From NCBI GenBank assembly GCA_019056805.1, contig DXJG01000002.1:373103-405102 (forward strand): a DNA stretch of 32,000 nucleotides. Reading direction: 5' to 3'. The notes below the pieces were generated by a model that saw only the letters and a program-made list of their open reading frames with translations, was not told where the DNA came from and searched no databases. The position numbers and the translations under genes are program-made. Positions 87-14,806 of this stretch are shown here, piece after piece. This DNA comes from Candidatus Baldrarchaeota archaeon (lineage in GTDB: Archaea > Asgardarchaeota > Baldrarchaeia > Baldrarchaeales > DXJG01). Each line of letters opens with the position of its first letter. The first letter of the stretch is position 1.

Positions 87-3000
87 ATGGGTATCAAATA
101 CGCCGAAAACCCTTGGAACGATGAAGAAATACTAAAAACGTTAAAACCCTACGTAGCAAAATGGTTCAAACAAACATTCGAAACATTCACCCCACCACAA
201 AAATACGCAATCCCACTAATCCAAAAAGGAGAAAACACGCTCGTATTCAGCCCCACTGGTAGCGGAAAATGTATAACACCAGACCAAAAAGTCTTAGTAA
301 AAATAGACGGGCTTGTATACCTATTAAAAGGCGAAGAACTGATACAAATGGCTAAAACCGAGGGAAAAACACTACAAAAAATAGATAATGGAATTCTATA
401 CGAAATCCCTTCCCTTAAGGTATTTTCGTTAAAAGAAAATAAGATAGTTGAATCTCCAGCTTATATATACATCGAAGACTATAATGGAGAAATTATCGAA
501 ATAGAAACAGAAGCTGGGAGAAAGATTAAAGTCACACCAAATCATCCGCTGTTAAAAGAGGACATCGACGGAACCTGGAGATGGACTCCAGCTGAGAAAT
601 TGAAAGTCGGTGATAGAATAGCTGTAGCTAGAGAGATAAACTATAAATCTTCTATTAAAAAGCTTAAACTAAAAGAATCACTAAAAGCGTTGAAAACGAA
701 GTTTAAAGAAGTCCTTACATACAAAGACTTTCTTAAACTTAGGAAAAGAATAGATCATGTTGGTTTTAAAAAGCTAAGTTTAGAAGAATTAAATCAAGTC
801 AGAATCTTCTGCAAGTTAAAGTATACTAAAATAGCTAAGGAAACCGGTATTGGGCTAACTACAGTATGGAACTTCTTTAGAGGAAAAACCATTTATAAAA
901 AGGACTTGATTTTAAAAATCCTAAGAGAAAACTTCCCTAACTCTGTAGAAGAAAATAGAATCTTCATTCTAGGAAGAAACGGCGATATAATAAGTTTTAA
1001 ATATCCTAAAAAGATAGATGAAAAACTTGTCAAGTGGGTCGCTTTCGTCTTAAGTGAAGGTCACATTCAAGCAAGTTCCCGCGATAATTTTATAGACTTC
1101 ATGATGGTTGCTCAAGCAAAAAACAAAAAATTATTAAAGGAGTTTCTATCCATCACCAAAGAGCTTTTCGATGTAGAATTTAGAAAAAAAGATGAAATAA
1201 ACTGGGTTTTGAACTCTAGAGCTTTCCTCGAATTCATCTCAGTGTATCTAGATCTACAGCCAAATAGCCGAGAAAGAAGGAAAAAAATGCCAGAGTGGAT
1301 ATTGAGCCTCGATAAACCCTTAATGCGCATTTTCCTTAGATGGTTCTTCACACTAGATGCGGAAGTAAGAGACCAAATAGTCCTCTTTCAAGCAAGCGAA
1401 GATATCATCGACAAAATTGCATATATGCTACTTAGATTTGGAATTTTCCCTAGCCTAAATGTAAAATATAAATTTGCTTCAAACACTACCGAGAAGAAAA
1501 AAAGAAAATACTATAGTGTCAGCATATTTGGCATAAGAAACCTAAGAAAATTCGATCAAGAAATTGGTTTAGAAAGAGAACCACCTGCTTCCTACATTAA
1601 TCTATTAAAAGCCAAACCAAGCGGTGAACATGTAGGAAAATTCCACTTAAATTTCAAGGAAATATCTGAAATTAGAAAGATACTTGGGTGTTCTTGGCAC
1701 GACGAATTTGAAAAAAGATATGGAAACATATACGAGGTTGTAAGAAGAACAGGAATGATAACCTTAGGTGCAACACAAAAACTACAGGAACTATTAAAAC
1801 AAGATCTTCAAAAACTAAGCTTTAACGGAAATATTAAACTAATAGATTCCTTAAGAAAAATCCTAGGCTCAGAAATCTTTTTCCTAAAAATAAAGAAAAT
1901 TACCAAAATTCATTACGAAGGTAAATTGCTGGATTTCACCGTACCAAAGCTAAGAAACTTTATTGGCGGCAAGGGCGCTGTAGTTCTCCATAATACTCTT
2001 GCGGCTTTCTTATTTGCTATAAATTGGCTTTTTGGGCTGGGTGAGGAGGGGAAGTTAGAAGATACTGTTTATGTTGTTTATGTTTCGCCTCTTCGTGCGT
2101 TGGCGAACGATATTCGTAAAAATCTTCTTGTTCCTTTGGAGGGGATCCGTGAAGTTGCAAATGGTATGGGTTTAGAATTACCTGAAATTAGAGCATTTGT
2201 AAGAACTGGAGATACTCCTGCAAGTGAAAAGGCTAAGATGCTTAAGAAACCTCCTCACATATTAATAACAACTCCGGAAACTCTTTCAATAGTTTTGTGT
2301 GCGCCTAGATTTCGTGAAAAACTAAAAACAGTTAGATATGTCATTGTGGACGAAGTACACGAGCTTTGCGATAATAAACGGGGAGTTCATCTCTCATTAA
2401 GCTTGGAACGACTGCGAGAAATAGCAGAACAAGAATTTGTACGCATAGGACTAAGTGCAACTCAAGCACCATTAGAAGAAATAGCAAAATGGCTAGTAGG
2501 ATATAGAGAGAATGAAAAACTAAGAGATGTAACCATAGTAAACATATATGAAACAAAGAAGCTAGATATGAGAGTGATATGCCCAGTAAGAGACCTAATA
2601 CACACAGACTACGCATATGTAAACGCAAGAATGTACGAAATACTAAGAGACCTTGTAGAAAAACACAGAACAACCCTAATATTCACAAACACAAGAAGCG
2701 GAGCAGAAAGCGTAACATTCCACCTAAAACAAGTATTCGGAGAAGAATACATAGACCAAATAGCAACACATCATGGAAGCTTATCAAGAACAACAAGACT
2801 AGAAGTAGAAGATTTACTAAAACAAGGACAATTAAAAGCAGTAATTTGCGTTTCAGAGGACTCAAGAATCTTAACAAATCACTACTGGAAACCAATAATA
2901 GAGGTTAAACCACAAGACAAAGTTGTATACCTAGATGACCAACTAAAATTAAAAGAAGGAACATTCGCCGGACGTGTCTCTGTGCCCTATTACGACGAGG

Positions 3001-6000
3001 GATTTATGATAAAAAGCAGACTTGGTTTTGAAATCAAATGTACCAAGGAACACAAGTTTCTCACTATAAGACGTTCTAAACTTACGTGGATCGAAGCAAA
3101 AGACTTAAAAGTCGGTGATAAAGTCGCCGTAATAAGAAAAATTCCGACGTTTCAGCAAAAAATACCAAGTTATTATGAGCTCATTCCTGAAAATGCCTAT
3201 GTATGGTTAGAAGAGAACTTCTTAAAATCTCTGCGAGATGAAATCGTATCAAAATTTAATAGCATCAAACATTTCTGTAAACTAATTAATCTAAGATATT
3301 CTACAATCAAAGAAAACTTAAATGGAACGTATCCTATCAAATTTGCAAATCTCATGAAGATTTTAAAAAAGCTAGAAAGAGAAAACGAGATATTAGAGGA
3401 AATAAAAAATATAGGGACAGATAAACGAAAATACAATATACCTAACAGAAAAATTTCGAAAGATTTTATAAGATTTCTAGGTTTCTGGCTTGCTGAAGGT
3501 TCTTGGGACGCGTCGGGGATATCAATAGCTGGAAATGAAAACCTTCTTAAATACTATTCAAGTTTACTAACCAAAGAGTTCCCAGTTAAATTCATAAAAG
3601 ATAAAAATCCATATGGGATACCTCAAATAAAGTTTTATTCAACACTTTTACTTGGAATATTTAAAAAATTAACTGGCACTTTACATAAAAAATCTTTATA
3701 CGCTAAATTTCCGACTATTCTGTACGAATTACCATCTAGTTACAAATGGGCTTTTCTTTCGGGATACTTTGATGGTGATGGGTACTTAGAAGTAAAATCT
3801 GGAAGAATATATTCAGCTGGTTTCACCACATTTAACTTAAACCTAGCGAAGGGAATGCAAAATTTACTTCTCCAATTAGGGGTCATAGCTTCCATAAGAA
3901 AGAAAGAATACAACGAGTCAAGAGAATTCAGAGGAAGAAAAATAAGAAAAAGGGGTACTTGTTACACGGTTTCGATTTATGGAGGAGAAAATCTAAGGAT
4001 CTTTGCGACCAATATTGATCCGAAACGAGAAGAGTTCTCCAAGATTAAGCGGGTATGTGAACTTAAAGGCTATTGCAATAGGGATGTAGTGCCAGGCATG
4101 GGTGAAATTTTGCGAAAAACCAGAGAAGAAGCTGGAATTAGTACATACAAGCTTCAAAAACTTGGATACAATCCGGTTAAAGTAGAACTCGAGAAGAGAG
4201 AAATTCGAAGAGAAAACTTGAAAAAGTTAGCTGAAATCTACAAAGAAAGCAACCATAGTTATCTATTAAGAATATTGTCTAACTCTGATGTTTTCTGGGA
4301 TGAGATAATAGAGAAAAAACCCTTAAAGCTGAAACAAGTCTATAGTCTTGTTGATACAACGAATCATAATTACGTAATAGAAGGATTTATTTGTCGCAAC
4401 AGTTCGACAAGTCTTGAGCTTGGTATAGATATTGGTTATATTGATCTTGTGGTGCAGATTGGTAGTCCTAAGAGTGTAGCTAAAGGACTGCAGAGAGTTG
4501 GAAGAGCAGGACACTTTTTACACGAAGTTTCAAAAGGACGATTAATTGTTTTTGATAGAGATGATTTAGTTGAATGTACAGTTCTTGTAAAGGCAGCATA
4601 CGAAGGAAAAATAGACAGAGTACAAATACCTAAAAACTGCTTAGATGTACTTGCACAACACCTCGTAGGAATGTCAGTAAATAAGAAATGGAAGGTAGAT
4701 GAAGCCTACAAACTTATAAAAAGATCCTACTGCTATCACAACCTTTCCAAAAAAGATTTCATAGAAGTTCTAAGATATTTGGGAGGACACTATGTACACC
4801 TAGAAGATAGAGGAGTGTATAGAAAACTTTGGTACGACGAAGAAGAAGGTGTCTTTGGAAGAAAAAGAGCGGCAAGAATGATCTACTTCATGAACATTGG
4901 AACAATACCCGATGAGGCAGACTTCAGAGTAATATTAGAAGATCAAAGAACAACAATAGGAAGAATAAGCGAAAAATTCCTAGAAAGACTAACACCAGGA
5001 GACATATTTGTTCTGGGAGGAAAAACCTACCAATACCTAAGAACAAGAGAAAGTAAAGTATTCGTTAGAAGTGCTTACGGAAGAAGACCAACAGTTCCAC
5101 AATGGATAGGTGAAATGTTACCAAGAAGCTTCGACCTCTCAATAGAAGTTGGAAAATTCAGAGAACTTATTACAGAAAAGCTAAGAGAGCTGCCGGTTGA
5201 AGAAGTAAAAGAATGGCTCAAAAAAGAATACTATTTAGATGAAGCAGCAGCAAACAGCCTCATTCAATACTTCATAGAACAGTTAACATACGCAGGAAAA
5301 GTAGCATCTCACCGAAAAATAATACTGGAAGAGTTTTTCGACGAAAGAGGAAGACAAAACATAGTATTTCACGCACCCTTTGGAAGAAGAACAAACGACG
5401 CTCTTTCAAGGGCTTATGCTTATCAAGTCTCAAAACTTGTAAAAGCAAATGTAGCAACAACCGTAACAGATGACGGATTCATGTTAATCCTGCCTTATGG
5501 AAAAGTAGTAGACTTAAGAGAAATACCACCATTAGTAACCTCGAAAAACCTAATTGAAGTATTAAAGAAAGCAATTAGAAACACAGAGCTCTTCAAAAGA
5601 AGGTTTCAACATGTGGCAGCCAGAAGCTTCATGATACTTCGAAAATACAAAGGATACGAAATTTCACTATCAAAACAGCAATTCAGAGCATCAAAAATTT
5701 TAGATCTTATCGCGGACTGGGAAGACTTTCCAATAATAAAAGAAACATACAGAGAAATATTGGAAGATGTTTTCGACGTTGAAAACGCTAAAAAAGTTTT
5801 ACAATGGATAGAAGAAGGAAAAACAGTATTTGACTTCTTACCAGCAATGGAAATACCCTCACCATTCGCTCATGGAACAATTCTAGTTGGAATAAGCGAC
5901 ATAGTGATGATGGAGGACAGACAAGCCTTACTCAAAGAACTACACCAAAAAATTCTTGAAAAAATACAAAGAATGCCAGCGACTATCACAATAGAGAGAA

Positions 6001-7628
6001 GATCTTTCGAAACAATACCAGAATCTATAGTTTCCGAATTCTTAAAGAAAAGGCGAATGTTAACTATTAGAACAAAAGAAGACATAATAAAAATTTTACA
6101 TGAAATAGGAGCAATAAAACCTAGTGAAATAAAGAAATCAAAACATTTTGAAATAATAATATCAGGAACTGAAGATTCATCCAAGGAGAAAATGTGGAAA
6201 CAAATTAAAAATTGGATATTGAAACTCGAAGAAGAAGGCAAAATCATACAAGTACCCTGCTTAAAGGGAATGACACTTCACTACATAACAGTTGAAGATT
6301 ACCCAATATATGCCACCGCTTATCAAGAATCCGTAAAAATAAAAAGTGTAGAAAGAAAAATTCTAGATTACGTCAGAAGCTATGGCGGAGTAACCGCTGA
6401 TCAAATAGCGGAAACACTACAAATAGAGAAGAAAGAAGTGAATAGAGCGTTAAAGAAACTTGAAAAAGCATACATACTACATAGAAAGAAACAAAAAACA
6501 AAAAAAGAAACAAAACGGCTCCGTACAGCATGGTACATTGCAGAAGAAATACTTCCAAGAAGAATTCTAATAAAAACAGCTAAGATGAATAAAGCAGAGG
6601 CTCAAAAACAAATAATTTTAAAATTCCTTCACATAAACGGACCATCCACGTTCAAAGAGATAACAGATTATACGGGATTTCCCCAAGATGAAATATCAAA
6701 AATCTTATCCATATTAGAAGCAGAAGACATGATTGAAAGAGGAAAATTTGTAGACTACAAACCTACACCACAAGTAATCATAAAAGAAGACCTAGAAGAA
6801 CTAAGAAGATTATCAGAAATAATTGTAGAGAAGAAAATAATACCAACAGAAATACTAGAAGCTTATTATATGAAAATACAACATCTAACAGAAGATACTA
6901 AAGGATTTACAGAAAGCGATATACTAAAAATCTTAGCTGACTGCGGCCCCATGTACACCCTCGTAAACCGAACACCCACCCTATTAAACAGAATGAAAAT
7001 ACCAAGAGAAGAAATAGAAAAACTAATCAAAAAACTATGGAAAGAGAAAAAAATCTTTTGGATAAGATGCTTGAGAGAAATGAAAGCCCTTTGGATAATA
7101 GACAAAGAATATCCATTATTCTATAAATTATATGCTAAACAAATCAAACTTAACGACATAGATCAAAAAATACTTAATGAGATAAGAGAAAACGGACCAG
7201 TAGCCACTCACATTCTTGCACGCAAACTAAAAATTAAAACCGGGCAACTAAGAGCATCTCTACAAAAACTGGAAAGAAGCTACAAAATAATAAGAGTAGA
7301 CATCACAACAGACGAAAAGGGAAGACCAGCAATACTATGGGACACAGCAGAAAAATTTGTACCAAAACACCTACTCAAAGAAGCCAAGAAAATAAGCATA
7401 GAAACAGCGCTCAAAAAATTAATTATAAAATTCCTTCACATAAACGGACCATCCACAATAGATGAAATATGCGGATGGATAGGCTTTCCAGAAGACAAAA
7501 TCAAACCACTATTGAATGAACTACAAAAAGAAAAAATTACAAAACACGGCATGTTCACAAGAACAAAAATAGCAACACAATGGATATTAACAGAAGATTT
7601 AGAAAAACTATTCAAACCAGAAACTTAA
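87..7628 (+). CDS. lhr: Lhr-family SF2 ATP-dependent helicase precursor (2513 aa; ~1420 aa after removal of two inteins) with a long winged-helix C-terminal extension
   Basis: With the inteins removed, the motifs read: Q motif FTPPQKYAI, Walker A SPTGSGK|TLAAF, Ia YVSPLRALAND, II VIVDEVH, III GLSAT, IV LIFTNTRSGAE, HHGSLSR, V AVI|SSTSLELGIDIG, VI QRVGRAGH. Lhr-specific LDVLAQH and FHAPFGRRTNDALSR segments are present. RBS GAGGAG at 75-80. Confidence 0.95.
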   Translation: MGIKYAENPWNDEEILKTLKPYVAKWFKQTFETFTPPQKYAIPLIQKGENTLVFSPTGSGKCITPDQKVLVKIDGLVYLLKGEELIQMAKTEGKTLQKIDNGILYEIPSLKVFSLKENKIVESPAYIYIEDYNGEIIEIETEAGRKIKVTPNHPLLKEDIDGTWRWTPAEKLKVGDRIAVAREINYKSSIKKLKLKESLKALKTKFKEVLTYKDFLKLRKRIDHVGFKKLSLEELNQVRIFCKLKYTKIAKETGIGLTTVWNFFRGKTIYKKDLILKILRENFPNSVEENRIFILGRNGDIISFKYPKKIDEKLVKWVAFVLSEGHIQASSRDNFIDFMMVAQAKNKKLLKEFLSITKELFDVEFRKKDEINWVLNSRAFLEFISVYLDLQPNSRERRKKMPEWILSLDKPLMRIFLRWFFTLDAEVRDQIVLFQASEDIIDKIAYMLLRFGIFPSLNVKYKFASNTTEKKKRKYYSVSIFGIRNLRKFDQEIGLEREPPASYINLLKAKPSGEHVGKFHLNFKEISEIRKILGCSWHDEFEKRYGNIYEVVRRTGMITLGATQKLQELLKQDLQKLSFNGNIKLIDSLRKILGSEIFFLKIKKITKIHYEGKLLDFTVPKLRNFIGGKGAVVLHNTLAAFLFAINWLFGLGEEGKLEDTVYVVYVSPLRALANDIRKNLLVPLEGIREVANGMGLELPEIRAFVRTGDTPASEKAKMLKKPPHILITTPETLSIVLCAPRFREKLKTVRYVIVDEVHELCDNKRGVHLSLSLERLREIAEQEFVRIGLSATQAPLEEIAKWLVGYRENEKLRDVTIVNIYETKKLDMRVICPVRDLIHTDYAYVNARMYEILRDLVEKHRTTLIFTNTRSGAESVTFHLKQVFGEEYIDQIATHHGSLSRTTRLEVEDLLKQGQLKAVICVSEDSRILTNHYWKPIIEVKPQDKVVYLDDQLKLKEGTFAGRVSVPYYDEGFMIKSRLGFEIKCTKEHKFLTIRRSKLTWIEAKDLKVGDKVAVIRKIPTFQQKIPSYYELIPENAYVWLEENFLKSLRDEIVSKFNSIKHFCKLINLRYSTIKENLNGTYPIKFANLMKILKKLERENEILEEIKNIGTDKRKYNIPNRKISKDFIRFLGFWLAEGSWDASGISIAGNENLLKYYSSLLTKEFPVKFIKDKNPYGIPQIKFYSTLLLGIFKKLTGTLHKKSLYAKFPTILYELPSSYKWAFLSGYFDGDGYLEVKSGRIYSAGFTTFNLNLAKGMQNLLLQLGVIASIRKKEYNESREFRGRKIRKRGTCYTVSIYGGENLRIFATNIDPKREEFSKIKRVCELKGYCNRDVVPGMGEILRKTREEAGISTYKLQKLGYNPVKVELEKREIRRENLKKLAEIYKESNHSYLLRILSNSDVFWDEIIEKKPLKLKQVYSLVDTTNHNYVIEGFICRNSSTSLELGIDIGYIDLVVQIGSPKSVAKGLQRVGRAGHFLHEVSKGRLIVFDRDDLVECTVLVKAAYEGKIDRVQIPKNCLDVLAQHLVGMSVNKKWKVDEAYKLIKRSYCYHNLSKKDFIEVLRYLGGHYVHLEDRGVYRKLWYDEEEGVFGRKRAARMIYFMNIGTIPDEADFRVILEDQRTTIGRISEKFLERLTPGDIFVLGGKTYQYLRTRESKVFVRSAYGRRPTVPQWIGEMLPRSFDLSIEVGKFRELITEKLRELPVEEVKEWLKKEYYLDEAAANSLIQYFIEQLTYAGKVASHRKIILEEFFDERGRQNIVFHAPFGRRTNDALSRAYAYQVSKLVKANVATTVTDDGFMLILPYGKVVDLREIPPLVTSKNLIEVLKKAIRNTELFKRRFQHVAARSFMILRKYKGYEISLSKQQFRASKILDLIADWEDFPIIKETYREILEDVFDVENAKKVLQWIEEGKTVFDFLPAMEIPSPFAHGTILVGISDIVMMEDRQALLKELHQKILEKIQRMPATITIERRSFETIPESIVSEFLKKRRMLTIRTKEDIIKILHEIGAIKPSEIKKSKHFEIIISGTEDSSKEKMWKQIKNWILKLEEEGKIIQVPCLKGMTLHYITVEDYPIYATAYQESVKIKSVERKILDYVRSYGGVTADQIAETLQIEKKEVNRALKKLEKAYILHRKKQKTKKETKRLRTAWYIAEEILPRRILIKTAKMNKAEAQKQIILKFLHINGPSTFKEITDYTGFPQDEISKILSILEAEDMIERGKFVDYKPTPQVIIKEDLEELRRLSEIIVEKKIIPTEILEAYYMKIQHLTEDTKGFTESDILKILADCGPMYTLVNRTPTLLNRMKIPREEIEKLIKKLWKEKKIFWIRCLREMKALWIIDKEYPLFYKLYAKQIKLNDIDQKILNEIRENGPVATHILARKLKIKTGQLRASLQKLERSYKIIRVDITTDEKGRPAILWDTAEKFVPKHLLKEAKKISIETALKKLIIKFLHINGPSTIDEICGWIGFPEDKIKPLLNELQKEKITKHGMFTRTKIATQWILTEDLEKLFKPET
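270..1994 (+). mobile_element. Intein 1 (575 aa) inserted in the Walker A loop of Lhr, with an HTH and a LAGLIDADG-type endonuclease region
   Basis: Starts at Cys (TGT 270-272, CITPDQKVLV) directly after GSGK. Block B is KVTPNHPLL, block F is LLDFTVP, and it ends VVLHN (1992-1994) followed by Thr+1. Removal restores GSGKTLAAF. Endonuclease-like motifs: VAFVLSEGH and FLRWFFTLDAE. HTH-like segment: YTKIAKETGIGLTTVWNFFRGK. Confidence 0.93.
2847..4400 (+). mobile_element. Intein 2 (518 aa) inserted at helicase motif V of Lhr, with a LAGLIDADG homing endonuclease
   Basis: Starts at Cys (TGC 2847-2849, CVSEDSRIL). Block B is KCTKEHKFL; LAGLIDADG blocks are FLGFWLAEGS and FLSGYFDGDG. It ends EGFICRN (4398-4400) followed by Ser+1. 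Removal restores KAVISSTSLELGIDIG. Confidence 0.92.
6010..7610 (+). repeat. Intragenic tandem duplication of a ~265-aa winged-helix module in the Lhr C-terminal extension (about 6010-6810 and 6835-7610)
   Basis: Paired segments: EDIIKILHEIG / SDILKILADCG; KIIQVPCLKGMTLHYITVEDYPIY / KIFWIRCLREMKALWIIDKEYPLF; ERKILDYVRSYGGV / DQKILNEIRENGPV; AWYIAEEILPR / LWDTAEKFVPK; KFLHINGPST in both copies; EDLEEL / EDLEKL. An exact 31-bp repeat lies at 6619-6649 and 7426-7456. Confidence 0.9.
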
Positions 7629-7739: not shown

Positions 7740-8996
7740 TTAATCCCAAGGTTTTCTATCTAATTCCATCTTCTCTAATTGCGTTAAAACATATTTTCGA
7801 GTTTCTTCTGGTTTAGGGAATTCTCGTATTATCTTTCCATTCCTAACAAGAGGCTTTAACATATTTTCCATGTTTTTTCCACATTTAGGACATTTTGGAG
7901 CAGGCTCATTTTCTAAGCGAACCACATCTATAAGACACTCAGAACATCTATACACTCTCTTAACACCGCTAAATTTTCCCCTCTTAGCACAAGGAACCCA
8001 TTTACCCTCATGATGAATGGCAACAATATCCATAGCAAAATCGATTATCCTAGCATTAGCTATCGAAGAACCAACACCAAATCCAGAAACACCAGCTTTA
8101 ACAAGTTCAGGAATCGTATCCTCATTAATACCGCCAGAAACAAAAACTTTTCCATCAAAACCTCTAGCTTTAAGTTCCCAAATAACTTCCCGAACGATAT
8201 CCGCAAATTTACCACGCCTAGAACTTGGAGTATCAAGTCTGAAACCCCATATTCTATCAGGTCCAACAGTTTTCACAGCTCTTATTGCCTCAGAAACCTC
8301 GTCCAAATAAGTATCACAAAGAATTATTCGAGGTACATCCTCAGGCATAATACGGTCAAAAGCTTTCCAAGCCTCACTATGATCACCTTTCAAAACAGAG
8401 TAAATAATCATTAAACTATGAGGCATCGTACCAACAGGCTTCATTCCCAAAAATCTTTCAGCCCCCAATACACAAGACACTGCATCGCAACCACCAATGT
8501 AAGCATAAAACGCATTAAACGGTGAGATTGCAGGATGCGTTCTCCGTGCACCAAAAGAAACAATCAACACATTATTTCCAGCAGCTTTTCTTATTCTAGC
8601 AGCTTTCGAAGCAATACCAGAACCAACACAGAGAAAACCAAGAAGAGGAGTCTCATAAATAACAAATTTACCATAAGGACCTCTGATAGTCATAACAGGC
8701 TCCTTAATGCCGTAATAATCAGTTTTATAAATTACTGATCCTTCCGGAAAAGCATCAATATCAACAGGGACACCTTCAAACAACTTTGCAACATCTCTTA
8801 ATCCCCCAAAAATGCCCCAAGGATAACCATGCGGCAAACCACTAATAGTAATTTCAGCATGAACCAAAGTATCCGCAAGATTCTCTTCTTCTAAGATCCT
8901 TAAAGTCCTGTAAAAATATATGTCAGTAGTCTTTCCTTCCTTAACATCCTCATGCTTCGCAAAAATAAATAAATAGTTATCATCCTTCCAATTCAT
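7740..8996 (-). CDS. pncB: Nicotinate phosphoribosyltransferase, archaeal type
   Basis: TTDIYF, SFGARRTHP, GTMPHSLM (phospho-His), LCDTY, FRLDTPSSRRG, VFVSGGI, GFGVGS and AKRGK motifs; C-terminal CxxC...CPKC zinc ribbon. Confidence 0.92.
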   Translation of the reverse strand: MNWKDDNYLFIFAKHEDVKEGKTTDIYFYRTLRILEEENLADTLVHAEITISGLPHGYPWGIFGGLRDVAKLFEGVPVDIDAFPEGSVIYKTDYYGIKEPVMTIRGPYGKFVIYETPLLGFLCVGSGIASKAARIRKAAGNNVLIVSFGARRTHPAISPFNAFYAYIGGCDAVSCVLGAERFLGMKPVGTMPHSLMIIYSVLKGDHSEAWKAFDRIMPEDVPRIILCDTYLDEVSEAIRAVKTVGPDRIWGFRLDTPSSRRGKFADIVREVIWELKARGFDGKVFVSGGINEDTIPELVKAGVSGFGVGSSIANARIIDFAMDIVAIHHEGKWVPCAKRGKFSGVKRVYRCSECLIDVVRLENEPAPKCPKCGKNMENMLKPLVRNGKIIREFPKPEETRKYVLTQLEKMELDRKPWD

Positions 8997-9121: not shown

Positions 9122-9664
9122 ATGAAAAAGGTAATTCTGGTAATAGATATGTTGAATGATTTCATAAAAGAAGGAGCACCGCTAGAATTACCAGAAGGGA
9201 GAAAAATAATACCAAACATAAAGAAATTACTGGAAGAGGCAAGAAAGAAAAAAATACCAATAATATATATTTGTGATGCTCACCGTCCTGACGATACAGA
9301 ATTTAATCAATGGCCAAAGCACTGTGTTGAAGGTACATCTGGGGCAGAAATAGTGGAAGAACTAAAACCAGAAAAAACAGACATAATAATAAAAAAGAGA
9401 AGATATAGCGGATTCTACTCCACGGATCTAGATCTAACCCTCAGAGAACTAAAAATAGACACACTGATACTGACAGGAGTAGCAACAAACATTTGCGTAC
9501 TACATACTGCAGCTGACGCTTACTTTAGAGGTTACAAAATCGTGGTGGTTAAAGATTGCGTAGCAACATTAAACGAAGAGGCACAGAAAATAGGATTGGA
9601 GCACATAAAAAACGTATTGGGAGGAGAAATAAAAACACTAAACGAAACAATAAAAGAACTATAA
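9122..9664 (+). CDS. pncA: Cysteine hydrolase (isochorismatase family), probable nicotinamidase
   Basis: VIDMLNDF (Asp), DAH and WPKHCV (metal site), KKRRYSGF (Lys), GVATNICV (Cys). Divergent from pncB. RBS GGAGG upstream. Confidence 0.8.
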   Translation: MKKVILVIDMLNDFIKEGAPLELPEGRKIIPNIKKLLEEARKKKIPIIYICDAHRPDDTEFNQWPKHCVEGTSGAEIVEELKPEKTDIIIKKRRYSGFYSTDLDLTLRELKIDTLILTGVATNICVLHTAADAYFRGYKIVVVKDCVATLNEEAQKIGLEHIKNVLGGEIKTLNETIKEL

Positions 9665-13703: not shown

Positions 13704-14222
13704 ATGAGTTTTCACACAGAAAGATACCCTCAGAGAAAAGAGTATACAATACTAAGTTCTATAAGTGTAATTTTTATGATTTTTATCCTAATCGTAGCTT
13801 TTTTCTACCAGTTGATTGTAGTGCTTCTTTTTTCTTCCCTTTTAATTTTTACATTAGTTAGTGGTATTTTTACATATCGTTTTTTCAATTTTCTCAAAAT
13901 TAAAGAAGAACTTGCTAGAGTCGGAAAAGTTTCCGAAAAAATATCAGAAGAAGAAAAAAGAATGAAAGTTTTAAAAGCTCGCTTTTTCTTTTTTCTTCTT
14001 CTCTCAACGCCACTAGTAATGATGCTTTTTCTCGACCCAATCACATGGACAAGCCTTGTGGTAGGATTGATGGGTGGAGTAAGCTTAGGAAACCTTTCTT
14101 TTTCACTTTATGTACGTGCTTGGGAGCATCGAAATAATCTTACTTTATACAGATATGTTCAAGATGTAGGCAAAGGGTTAATAGAACAAGGAATTATTGC
14201 TTACCGCAAACGAAAGAAATAA
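13704..14222 (+). CDS. Hypothetical membrane protein (about 4 TM helices)
   Basis: 172-aa ORF with two hydrophobic hairpins separated by a charged loop, and a basic C-terminus. Confidence 0.7.
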   Translation: MSFHTERYPQRKEYTILSSISVIFMIFILIVAFFYQLIVVLLFSSLLIFTLVSGIFTYRFFNFLKIKEELARVGKVSEKISEEEKRMKVLKARFFFFLLLSTPLVMMLFLDPITWTSLVVGLMGGVSLGNLSFSLYVRAWEHRNNLTLYRYVQDVGKGLIEQGIIAYRKRKK

Positions 14223-14269
14223 ATACACTGGCTATTTTTAAAACCCTAGATATTCTGGATGGAGAAAGA

Positions 14270-14806
14270 ATGAGATCAAAACTATTTAGTATTCTAATGA
14301 TCTTAGTATTGTTAAGTGTCTCGGTCACTTTCTATCTTTACTACGTTATGGTATCATTTTGGGTTATCAATTTTAAGACAGCTGCGTATTTTGAAGTGGA
14401 AGTTATAAGCTTTGAGGTTGTATCTGCTGATAACGGTACAATAGCTGTGGATATAAAACTATACAACCCAGGCAAGCTACCCGTAGAAATATACATGATA
14501 CAATATCGAGTATATGTTAGCAAAGACAGTTATGCAACTTTCCTTTCTCCACCCTATATTGTATACTATAAAGACCCTTTACAAATTAAACCTAATGAAA
14601 CTCTAATCTATCAAACAATATACAGAACGGATTATATTGAAGTACTACAGTCGGCTGTTAAAAGCAAAGAAATGGCATGGCTAGTTGCAGGTGAAGTACA
14701 CATCTCTCTTCCTCTATATCCTGGTATAATAGTATCATTTTACAAATTAAACGGAACAATGGAATACCTACCAGTAGGATCACCATCCTCAGGCTTCAAT
14801 CCATAA
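14270..14806 (+). CDS. Membrane-anchored extracellular beta-sandwich protein, LEA_2/WHy-like
   Basis: N-terminal TM helix, then VDIKLYNPGKLPVEIYMIQYRVYV and PLQIKPNET, resembling the LEA_2/WHy pattern. Sequons NGT, NET, NGT. RBS GGAG. Confidence 0.6.
   Translation: MRSKLFSILMILVLLSVSVTFYLYYVMVSFWVINFKTAAYFEVEVISFEVVSADNGTIAVDIKLYNPGKLPVEIYMIQYRVYVSKDSYATFLSPPYIVYYKDPLQIKPNETLIYQTIYRTDYIEVLQSAVKSKEMAWLVAGEVHISLPLYPGIIVSFYKLNGTMEYLPVGSPSSGFNP

Follow-up and report, generated by a model that had tools for sequence, protein, structure and literature searches.

Lhr motors are 3'-to-5' ssDNA translocases/helicases. What the large AlkZ-like tail does for Lhr helicases is debated: in mycobacteria crosslink repair depends on it, via tetramerization, and in E. 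coli it is a reported uracil glycosylase. The C-terminal domain (CTD) of M. smegmatis Lhr (MsmLhr), which is devoid of the AlkZ active-site residues, is needed in vivo via tetramerization (PMC8053096, PMC9841417). Uracil-DNA glycosylase activity has been reported for the E. coli CTD (EcoLhr-CTD) without a QxQ motif (PMC10953399); hence, a missing AlkZ motif alone does not exclude catalysis. Neither purified MsmLhr-CTD nor EcoLhr-CTD gave a stable DNA complex in gel-shift assays (PMC8053096, PMC10953399), which leaves DNA binding unproven for the winged-helix arrays of this family. The AlkZ family uses the catalytic motifs (Q/H)-Phi-Q, Q-Phi-D, and H-Phi-(S/T)-(D/E) (PMC9040887). In archaea, Hajj et al. 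2021 described one HTH_42 domain in the aLhr2 of Methanomassiliicoccales and unannotated extensions in Thermoplasmatales, and noted intein sites in RecA1 and RecA2 (PMC8301817).

Here, we analyzed a window of 32,000 nucleotides from a Candidatus Baldrarchaeota genome (contig DXJG01000002.1, positions 373,103 to 405,102), in which an intein-bearing Lhr gene ends in two AlkZ/YcaQ-like modules.

The Lhr gene and its inteins

The precursor gene (Table 1) is a single uninterrupted frame with zero stops and zero frameshifts, as seen in the ORF list and the translation. Pfam matched all four core domains on the precursor, namely DEAD, Helicase_C, WH_Lhr (PF19306, aa 1504-1667, 129 bits), and DEAD_assoc (PF08494, aa 1740-1928, 190 bits), and the NCBIfam model NF010338 scored 1193 bits (cut-off 849). 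The boundaries of the two inteins were fixed by comparison with intein-free orthologues, one of which is 1422 aa long; intein 1 contains a LAGLIDADG endonuclease, and the C-terminus of intein 2 is C-R-N, not H-N. The GSGKT, DEVH, SAT, and QRVGRAGH motifs are restored in the spliced sequence, and after the splicing of both inteins the core is predicted to be a standard Lhr motor. The earlier note on this DNA had placed the core end near residue 870 of the spliced protein, with an extension of ~550 aa behind it; we located the end at residue 868, and all of the strings quoted there (KELHQKILEKIQ, DIIKILHEIGAI, LKGMTLHYITVEDYP, WYIAEEILP, LKFLHINGPSTFKEITDYTGF, and EDLEEL) were found in the translation.

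Table 1. Coordinates of the Lhr gene and its parts (positions in the analyzed window).
Feature	Position	Strand	Description	Evidence
Lhr helicase precursor gene	87..7628 (stop codon included)	+	2513 aa; 1420 aa once spliced	ORF list, translation
Intein 1	270..1994	+	575 aa, aa 62-636; P-loop insertion GSGK/C...HN/T	Pfam Intein_splicing, LAGLIDADG_3
Intein 2	2847..4400	+	518 aa, aa 921-1438; in RecA2, immediately upstream of SSTSLELG	Pfam, orthologue comparison
C-terminal extein of the Lhr core	4401..5969	+	Remaining RecA2, WH_Lhr, Domain 4 (DEAD_assoc); core end ...KELHQKILEKIQ	Pfam
Module copy 1	5979..6806	+	aa 1965-2240; predicted three-winged-helix AlkZ/YcaQ-like module, M1 type, barrel-less	PF06224, AF2, VIA, tree
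K2011-P2012-S2013	6117..6125	+	Copy 1, at the place of AlkZ Q-A-Q / YcaQ Q-x-D	Alignment A3, AlkZ alignment
Basic beta-hairpin wing	6480..6533	+	aa 2132-2149, HRKKQKTKKETKRLRTAW; strongly basic, part of the central winged helix in copy 1	Models, alignment A3, charge count
Module copy 2	6807..7625	+	aa 2241-2513; predicted second M1-type three-winged-helix array, barrel-less	PF06224, PF24741, VIA, tree, AU test
Y2290-T2291-L2292	6954..6962	+	Copy 2, at the catalytic-motif place	Alignment A3, AlkZ alignment

The core of an intein-free orthologue scored 476 bits against MsmLhr (5V9X), compared with 271 bits for the second Lhr paralogue of the genome. Because this core belongs to the paralogue nearer to bacterial long Lhr, we infer from these relative scores that the helicase is probably aLhr2-like. 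The neighboring genes encode a phosphoribosyltransferase, an isochorismatase-family protein, a phosphoglucomutase-type protein, and an Opp-type ABC transporter; a repair operon was ruled out, as these are housekeeping genes. A 125-aa ORF on the minus strand (5870-6247), overlapping the tail region, had zero Pfam matches and was taken as spurious. A consensus scan revealed no terminator 3' of the stop codon, which carries little weight since the consensus describes bacterial signals and the host is archaeal.

Structure and history of the duplicated tail

The tail extension (aa ~1963-2513, nt 5973-7625) is built of two tandem copies of ~275 aa, which share 33% identity over 273 columns with an E-value of 5e-39 (BLASTP), far beyond chance. 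Taken alone, both copies exceed the gathering cut-off (25.9 bits) of the AlkZ-like family PF06224, with 35.3 bits for copy 1 and 30.0 bits for copy 2. The matches cover positions 46-213 and 82-213, respectively, of the 329 positions of the profile, and neither match extends into the portion of the profile for the C-terminal beta module. Copy 2 also matches PF24741 with 32.9 bits. In addition, the central winged helix in either copy is matched by MarR_2, TrmB, HTH_24, and z-alpha, with scores above or close to the respective Pfam cut-offs. A phmmer search of the tail against PDB sequences returned short Z-alpha and MarR matches only, and a profile of the module placed generic MarR winged helices at the top, followed by 7LHL (E 9e-6) and 9ZD6 (E 1.3e-3). 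Phmmer with the free-standing homologue P0068 found zero matches in the PDB, and a profile of 17 free-standing homologues reaches AlkZ with an E-value of 6e-20. The module family cannot be told from generic winged helices by sequence alone, but it can be by comparing structures.

The AF2 model of copy 1 has a pLDDT of 89.8 and a pTM of 0.86, and the model of the whole tail has a pLDDT of 87.3 and a pTM of 0.52, with low pLDDT in the linkers, including a low-confidence linker that precedes copy 1. The pTM of the tail compared with that of one module suggests that the packing between the modules is not fixed, and a tail of two beads on a flexible string would fit both the low pTM and the poorly modelled linkers. 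Both copies match AlkX/YcaQ (9ZD6) with VIA Z-scores of 18.6 (copy 1, residues 13-294) and 19.6 (copy 2, residues 14-294), and AlkZ (5UUJ) with 16.1 and 16.8 (residues 1-273 in both cases); these superpositions have an rmsd of 2.7-3.7 Å over 238-246 residues. Copy 1 matches residues 1071-1373 of the M. smegmatis Lhr CTD (7LHL) with a VIA Z-score of 15.5. Furthermore, residues 30-564 of the tail model are colinear with residues 895-1371 of 7LHL_A (Z 17.1, 411 residues; Foldseek E 6.9e-9). Each module is thus predicted to form the three-winged-helix array found in the N-terminal ~275 aa of AlkZ/YcaQ and in WH4-WH6 of mycobacterial Lhr. The two tandem AlkZ/YcaQ-like winged-helix modules that the earlier note had recognized by eye on this archaeal Lhr are borne out by the PF06224 scores, the identity between the copies, and the structural matches, which are not confined to generic MarR/TrmB folds: AlkX/YcaQ, AlkZ, and MsmLhr-CTD are at the top with Z-scores of 15.5-19.6, compared with ≤ 12 for generic winged helices.

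The absence of the glycosylase motif, with K and Y where Q would stand, had likewise been pointed out, as had the end of each module before the C-terminal beta module, and both observations hold. In alignment A3, the free-standing AlkZ-like proteins carry G-G-L-H-A-Q-D, and the corresponding residues are G-A-I-K-P-S-E in copy 1 and G-P-M-Y-T-L-V in copy 2; the h-a-g/Q positions of the free-standing AlkZ-like profile align with Q-A-Q of AlkZ (5UUJ). Neither copy contains any of the three catalytic motifs of the family, and the residues at this place vary among the orthologues. The structural matches stop at residue 273 of AlkZ and residue 294 of YcaQ, leaving AlkZ residues 274-371 without a counterpart. 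There is no C-terminal beta-barrel in the protein: copy 2 begins directly after copy 1, and the chain stops right behind the final helix of copy 2, with no residues beyond the last winged helix for the terminal barrel of the bacterial CTD, including the Asp-1536 region of E. coli. A free-standing AlkZ-like gene that could give the barrel in trans was considered and rejected, as a PF06224 search of the same genome (91% complete) matched this gene only. Since both modules are without the catalytic motif and the cleft-closing barrel, the tail probably has no glycosylase function.

In the module tree, both copies fall in the M1 clade with a support of 98/95, and an AU test rejects the grouping of copy 2 with the canonical second (M2) modules (p 7e-5), a grouping that was chosen after the tree had been inspected. 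The two copies also share the M1-type insert (alignment A1). In long archaeal Lhr proteins, the module that adjoins the core is always the barrel-less M1, and M1 modules are everywhere without the catalytic motif (alignment A3). M2- or M3-type modules with barrel segments are missing from this protein, in which copy 2 is of the M1 type and nothing follows it. Because the tree and the AU test place both copies as M1, this lineage appears to have duplicated M1 in tandem, without a complete (winged-helix plus barrel) AlkZ-like unit. The duplication proposed earlier therefore stands as far as two real copies are concerned, and is refined to the duplication of an M1-type module.

Possible roles of the tail

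We favor, with a probability of roughly 60%, the reading that the M1-duplicated tail of the spliced Asgard Lhr is a non-catalytic appendage for holding DNA and/or linking protomers or partners. The basic winged helices of the tail would keep the helicase attached to duplex or branched DNA, and the tail might also, or instead, link Lhr protomers or partner proteins, as the bacterial CTD does by tetramerizing. The net charges of the two copies are +12 and +15, and the basic character of the copy 1 wing is retained in the orthologues (alignment A3); the basic charge may partly mirror a low-GC genome, whose proteome is rich in Lys.

A tail that serves mainly as a protein-protein platform, for Lhr oligomerization or the recruitment of repair factors with little DNA contact, is unlikely, although several observations agree with it. 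The main interface residues of the MsmLhr-CTD tetramer (H1199, R1206, and R1286) are located in WH4-WH6, the part that the modules resemble, and in vivo this tetramerization is indispensable (PMC9841417, PMC8053096). The colinearity of the tail with 7LHL and the failure of the isolated bacterial CTDs to shift DNA point in the same direction. However, the beta-barrel, which is a component of the bacterial CTD body, is missing here, the modules are strongly basic, and the solved structure with the nearest fold, 9ZD6, contains DNA. A homodimer prediction for copy 2 (two copies, alignment A3) scored 0.00 and weighs neither way.

It is rather improbable that the two barrel-less modules work together as a pseudo-dimer within one chain, clamping duplex or crosslinked DNA next to the motor and replacing both the complete AlkZ-like units and the oligomerization of other long Lhr proteins. 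If so, the protein would be a natural separation-of-function variant, showing that the helicase needs nothing of such a tail but the winged-helix array. The earlier note had raised the idea of a dimer mimicked in a single chain, for which the pTM values above suggest no fixed packing of the modules.

The regulator-type Pfam matches on the central winged helices, together with the basic wing in copy 1 and the profile matches to MarR and Z-alpha proteins in the PDB (E 1e-5 to 1e-9), would also suit a sequence- or structure-specific DNA reader that targets the helicase or regulates its own gene through MarR/TrmB/Z-alpha-like winged helices. We consider such a reader very unlikely, as these matches span only ~65 of the 275 aa of each module and reach Z ≤ 12, compared with 16-20 for AlkZ/YcaQ. 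MarR-type regulators work as dimers through a dimerization helix, which is missing here.

The activity of EcoLhr-CTD without QxQ (PMC10953399) is an argument for a hidden catalytic role, as a DNA glycosylase or a lesion-processing enzyme whose active site is non-canonical, and K-P-S-E in copy 1 faintly recalls the AZL2 motif H-x-(S/T)-(D/E) (PMC9040887). Nevertheless, the E. coli activity needs Asp-1536, situated 3 residues from the C-terminus and past the winged-helix array, and its counterpart is missing here; K-x-S-E is not kept in the orthologues, which have K-F-N-E, K-I-S-K, and P-E-D-E; and the barrel is required for the C-shaped cleft of AlkZ (PMC8053096). This enzymatic role is hardly probable, and it is unlikely that the protein is a new enzyme.

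Finally, the longer tails of related lineages, with three to four modules and barrels, might suggest a decaying, functionless remnant of a longer C-terminal domain, which is extremely improbable and already disfavoured: dN/dS is ~0.16 for each copy (versus a same-genus MAG), indicating that purifying selection acts on both, the frame is intact in all recovered full-length orthologues (two families, down to 42% identity), the sole stop seen being one TAA in a MAG of the same genus, and both modules fold confidently in the models.

Distribution and comparison with known systems

We searched 1.84 billion representatives, clustered at 50% identity, with the module (E ≤ 1e-10) and found 285 matching clusters; among the best 150, many are of Lhr length (1400-2350 aa). 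Asgard and Thermoplasmata archaea commonly encode long Lhr proteins with two to four of these modules; such proteins were present in 8 of the 27 sampled Asgard families as well as in Thermoplasmata. A locus scan with the single protein recovered three same-genus MAGs only, and the architecture is retained in a sister family at 42% identity. MAGs of this genus carry the labels Baldrarchaeota or Odinarchaeota. The earlier view of this locus as an undescribed repair system gives way to a single fusion protein amid housekeeping genes; the supposed rarity of the architecture is contradicted by the spread of long archaeal Lhr; and its novelty in the literature is reduced by the HTH_42 domains already reported on some aLhr2 proteins (PMC8301817). 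The impact on current views is accordingly modest, the wider family being already common in databases.

The aLhr2 proteins with HTH_42 belong to an archaeal Lhr class that groups with bLhr-HTH and, as here, have a C-terminal PF06224 match; tandem modules, module types, and Asgard forms are absent from that description (PMC8301817). In bacterial long Lhr (bLhr-HTH, such as the M. smegmatis core 5V9X and CTD 7LHL, and E. coli), AlkZ-homologous winged helices likewise directly follow the core, and the AlkZ catalytic residues are missing there (PMC8053096) as they are here. However, the bacterial CTD consists of WH2-WH3 and one AlkZ-like unit with a barrel, whereas this tail has two full three-winged-helix modules, both barrel-less. 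The archaeal host, the intein-bearing gene, and the lack of a counterpart of E. coli Asp-1536 further separate the two. The interstrand-crosslink glycosylases of the HTH_42 family, such as AlkZ (5UUJ) and AlkX/YcaQ (9ZD6), contain three tandem winged helices that are reproduced in each module; in contrast, the modules are barrel-less, without (Q/H)xQ or QxD, fused to a helicase, and tandemly duplicated.

The two-module Lhr of Njordarchaeales (P0014 cluster, 1425-1433 aa) has a similar length, a two-module tail, and no complete barrel. However, its second module is of the canonical M2 type, with the M2 of Odin/Asgardarchaeum as its sister (support 100/99), and the protein ends ~30 aa later; its two-module state thus seems to have arisen by truncation, not by duplication of M1. 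Two modules would therefore have been reached independently, by M1 duplication here and by truncation in Njordarchaeales, and the comparison shows that the Lhr tail evolves by module shuffling.

The long archaeal Lhr proteins of Asgard, Thermoplasmata, and Marine Group II (1700-2350 aa) have the arrangement core, M1, M2 with a barrel, and M3 with a barrel. They share with this protein the core type and an M1 adjoining the core, with E-values of the module profile down to 0. Their M2 and M3 modules are each followed by ~100-150 aa, by which the PF06224 match is extended in one case to profile position 296 of 329, whereas here a second M1-type module is followed by the end of the protein. The protein is a stripped-down, lineage-specific variant of this common but barely described family. 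The barrel and all candidate catalytic residues have been lost in its lineage, which retains the winged-helix array only, as two copies evolving under purifying selection; the protein is thereby a small, naturally "minimal" test case, which could show what the array contributes to the Lhr motor, whether DNA grip, self-association, or partner binding.

An intein-split Lhr helicase with a duplicated C-terminal tail

The window's long ORF carries the DEAD, Helicase_C, WH_Lhr and DEAD_assoc domains of Pfam and matches the Lhr family NF010338 of NCBIfam (1193 bits). It contains two LAGLIDADG inteins, whose boundaries were placed by comparison with intein-free orthologues. After splicing, the protein has 1420 residues, the motifs GSGKT, DEVH, SAT and QRVGRAGH are restored, and the core runs to residue 868, its last residues being ...KELHQKILEKIQ, in agreement with the earlier note, which had put the end at about residue 870 and quoted this sequence. 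The ~550-aa tail behind the core consists of two copies (33% identity over 273 columns, E 5e-39), as the same note had proposed. Taken singly, both copies pass the gathering cut-off of the AlkZ-like Pfam family PF06224 (25.9 bits), copy 1 with 35.3 bits and copy 2 with 30.0 bits, with partial coverage of the profile (positions 46-213 and 82-213 of 329, respectively). MarR_2, TrmB, HTH_24 and z-alpha also match each copy in Pfam, restricted to the central ~65 residues.

Coordinates of the Lhr gene, its parts and the other genes discussed
Feature	Position	Strand	Remarks
Lhr helicase ORF	window 87-7628	+	2513 aa, single long ORF (ORF list, translation)
Intein 1	aa 62-636, window 270-1994	+	splits GSGKT between K and T
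Intein 2	aa 921-1438, window 2847-4400	+	immediately upstream of SSTSLELG
Intein 2, C-terminal junction	window 4386-4400		C-R-N followed by S
Tail	window 5973-7625	+	~550 aa, two tandem copies
Tail, copy 1	aa 1965-2240
Tail, copy 2	aa 2241-2513
Phosphoribosyltransferase gene	window 7740-8996	-	quinolinate/nicotinate type
Isochorismatase-family gene	window 9122-9664	+	nicotinamidase-like
Two adjacent ORFs	window 13704-14806		172 aa and 178 aa
Second Lhr paralogue	L021:1990-4872 (G000:C6)		960 aa, same genome
Two-module gene	L017:2447-4783	-	779-788 aa, no helicase
Two-module gene	L018:8945-11308	+	779-788 aa, no helicase

Intein 2 lacks the penultimate His of the usual H-N junction, although the host gene is otherwise intact and conserved. 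Among close relatives, intein presence is independent at the two sites: P0002 and P0006 have the P-loop intein only, P0003 has the RecA2 intein only, P0004, P0005 and P0007 have neither, and the window's gene has both. This patchy distribution points to recent gain or loss by homing inside one genus.

The window's own genome (91% complete) holds no second PF06224 gene besides this lhr; its second Lhr paralogue is intein-free, carries a DEAD_assoc domain and lacks an AlkZ-like tail. The core of the intein-free orthologue scores 476 bits to M. smegmatis Lhr (MsmLhr) versus 271 bits for the paralogue; by these scores the window's gene fits an aLhr2-like assignment, following Hajj et al. (PMC8301817), and the paralogue is probably an aLhr1-type copy.

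The lhr gene is flanked by an opposite-strand phosphoribosyltransferase-type gene (quinolinate/nicotinate) and by isochorismatase-family, phosphoglucomutase-type and Opp-type ABC transporter genes. No repair operon was found among these flanking genes, and the "undescribed repair system" of the earlier note is not borne out. The first two form a divergent pair just 3' of lhr that looks like an NAD salvage pair. Two adjacent ORFs between the Opp substrate-binding and permease genes have no Pfam match. An opposite-strand gene inside the tail region was rejected as unsupported.

Fold of the copies and the missing barrel

For the whole tail, AlphaFold2 with an alignment of 26 homologues gives a mean pLDDT of 87.3 and a pTM of 0.52, with low-confidence stretches ahead of copy 1 and between the copies, while copy 1 modelled alone reaches pLDDT 89.8 and pTM 0.86. 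The models thus suggest two well-folded beads without a fixed mutual orientation. The top Foldseek matches to the tail are 7LHL (the MsmLhr C-terminal domain, CTD; E 6.9e-9), 9ZD6 (DNA-bound AlkX/YcaQ; E 3.7e-8) and 5UUJ (AlkZ; E 2.1e-6). In pairwise alignments, with Z on the DALI scale, copy 2 matches 9ZD6 residues 14-294 (Z 19.6, 2.7 Å over 246 aligned) and 5UUJ residues 1-273 (Z 16.8, 3.7 Å over 243), and copy 1 matches 9ZD6 residues 13-294 (Z 18.6, 3.0 Å over 242), 5UUJ residues 1-273 (Z 16.1, 3.6 Å over 238) and WH4-WH6 of 7LHL, residues 1071-1373 (Z 15.5, 5.2 Å over 241). The whole tail aligns colinearly with 7LHL residues 895-1371 (Z 17.1, 411 residues). Against generic winged helices either copy reaches only Z ≤12 over about 65-95 residues, which argues against a generic MarR/TrmB identity, the alternative that the earlier note had weighed against its AlkZ/YcaQ-like modules. 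As modelled, both copies are AlkZ/YcaQ-type three-winged-helix arrays.

The structural matches go no further than the start of the beta-barrel in AlkZ (residues 274-371) and YcaQ. Copy 2 adjoins copy 1 directly, the protein terminates right behind the last helix of copy 2, and no barrel is present anywhere in the window's Lhr protein, in sequence or model; each copy does stop before the beta module, as had been claimed. The catalytic motifs of the family are Q-Phi-D (YcaQ-like), (Q/H)-Phi-Q (AlkZ-like) and H-Phi-(S/T)-(D/E) (AZL2) (PMC9040887). Free-standing metagenomic homologues of 350-420 aa have G-G-L-H-A-Q-D, and in their profile H-A-Q aligns with Q-A-Q of AlkZ. At these columns of the module alignment, copy 1 reads G-A-I-K-P-S-E and copy 2 G-P-M-Y-T-L-V, so that the predicted loss of the motif, with K and Y at the Q position, holds as K-P-S and Y-T-L; the residues differ between orthologues too. 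Lacking barrel and motif, the tail is probably non-catalytic. [quoted passage not shown]

Constraint and a possible role of the tail

Lhr cores are 3'-to-5' ssDNA translocases. Each copy of the tail has a dN/dS of ~0.16 against one same-genus MAG, and a sister family keeps the two-module tail at 42% identity. Both copies are positively charged (net +12 in copy 1, +15 in copy 2), and in copy 1 the wing of the central winged helix contains about ten Lys/Arg among 18 residues; orthologues share its basic character. AlkZ-type proteins hold DNA in the cleft between winged helices and barrel (PMC8053096), the close structural match 9ZD6 is a DNA complex, and the bacterial Lhr CTD is needed in vivo and works at least through tetramerisation (PMC9841417). 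The motor is followed by two basic, conserved, probably flexible AlkZ-type three-winged-helix arrays without barrel or motif, and this appendage most likely serves in DNA holding and/or in self-association or partner binding.

Module types and comparison with other Lhr proteins

When 1.84 billion representative proteins were searched with a profile made from 21 modules, 1712 passed E ≤ 1e-3, of which 285 also passed E ≤ 1e-10 and 60 E ≤ 1e-30. Among the matches listed are many Lhr proteins of 1700-1950 aa with three modules behind the core and free-standing AlkZ-like proteins of 350-420 aa, aligned over their full length. Members with a taxonomic name belong to Asgard MAGs labelled Odinarchaeota, Asgardarchaeum, Njordarchaeales or Baldrarchaeia and to Thermoplasmata; their annotation is just "ATP-dependent helicase". 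The module occurs in 61 of 151 sampled Asgard genomes; the proposed search for Lhr fusions in archaea found them in Thermoplasmata and in 8 of 27 sampled Asgard families, including one with 14/14 genomes, and most remaining families have free-standing ~390-aa genes only. In one Asgard family, a conserved two-module gene (both modules AlkZ-like, no helicase) directly follows a 1907-1941-aa Lhr in all 14 sampled genomes.

Long archaeal Lhr proteins usually have the layout core + M1 + M2 + ~140 aa + M3 + ~100 aa, where M1-M3 are module types numbered from the core and M1 is barrel-less. In a maximum-likelihood tree of 31 fused modules, with seven free-standing homologues as outgroup, M1 forms a clade (support 98/95) distinct from the M2 and M3 groups, and both copies of the window's tail fall inside it, as do those of the same-genus and sister-family orthologues. 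A tree constrained to unite the second copies with canonical M2 modules loses 43.8 log-likelihood units and is rejected by the AU test (p 7e-5), the group for this test having been chosen once the tree had been seen. A ~9-residue insert behind the first winged helix is common to M1 modules and both window copies and absent in M2-M4 types. By these sequence comparisons, the barrel-less module was therefore duplicated in tandem in the window's Lhr, giving a layout core + M1 + M1' that includes no complete unit.

Tandem modules on archaeal Lhr were not found described in the full-text literature on aLhr2, Lhr-CTD and archaeal or Asgard Lhr. Buckley et al. (2020) stated that the bacterial C-terminal region is absent in archaeal Lhr (PMC7437997); Hajj et al. 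(2021), who included few Asgard sequences, reported that aLhr2 of Methanomassiliicoccales carries an HTH_42 domain and that Thermoplasmatales have extensions with no annotation (PMC8301817); Bradley et al. (2022) counted 12 archaeal HTH_42 proteins and called helicase fusions understudied (PMC9040887).

Four modules are present in the 2344-2353-aa Lhr of one Asgard family; there, M2 together with the next 150 aa matches PF06224 as far as profile position 296 of 329, so that these appear to be fuller AlkZ-like units. In bacterial long Lhr, the match consists of a reduced M1 with two winged helices and one additional unit, in agreement with the WH2-WH3 plus WH4-WH6-barrel described by Warren et al. 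(PMC8053096). The Njordarchaeales cluster P0014 (1425-1433 aa) arrives at two modules by a different route, M1 plus a true canonical M2, and on sequence evidence is a second, independent two-module form; its proteins end ~30 aa past M2, in a stretch resembling the first strand of the barrel segment that was lost. Compared with these, the new element of the window's Lhr is the barrel-free M1 + M1' form.
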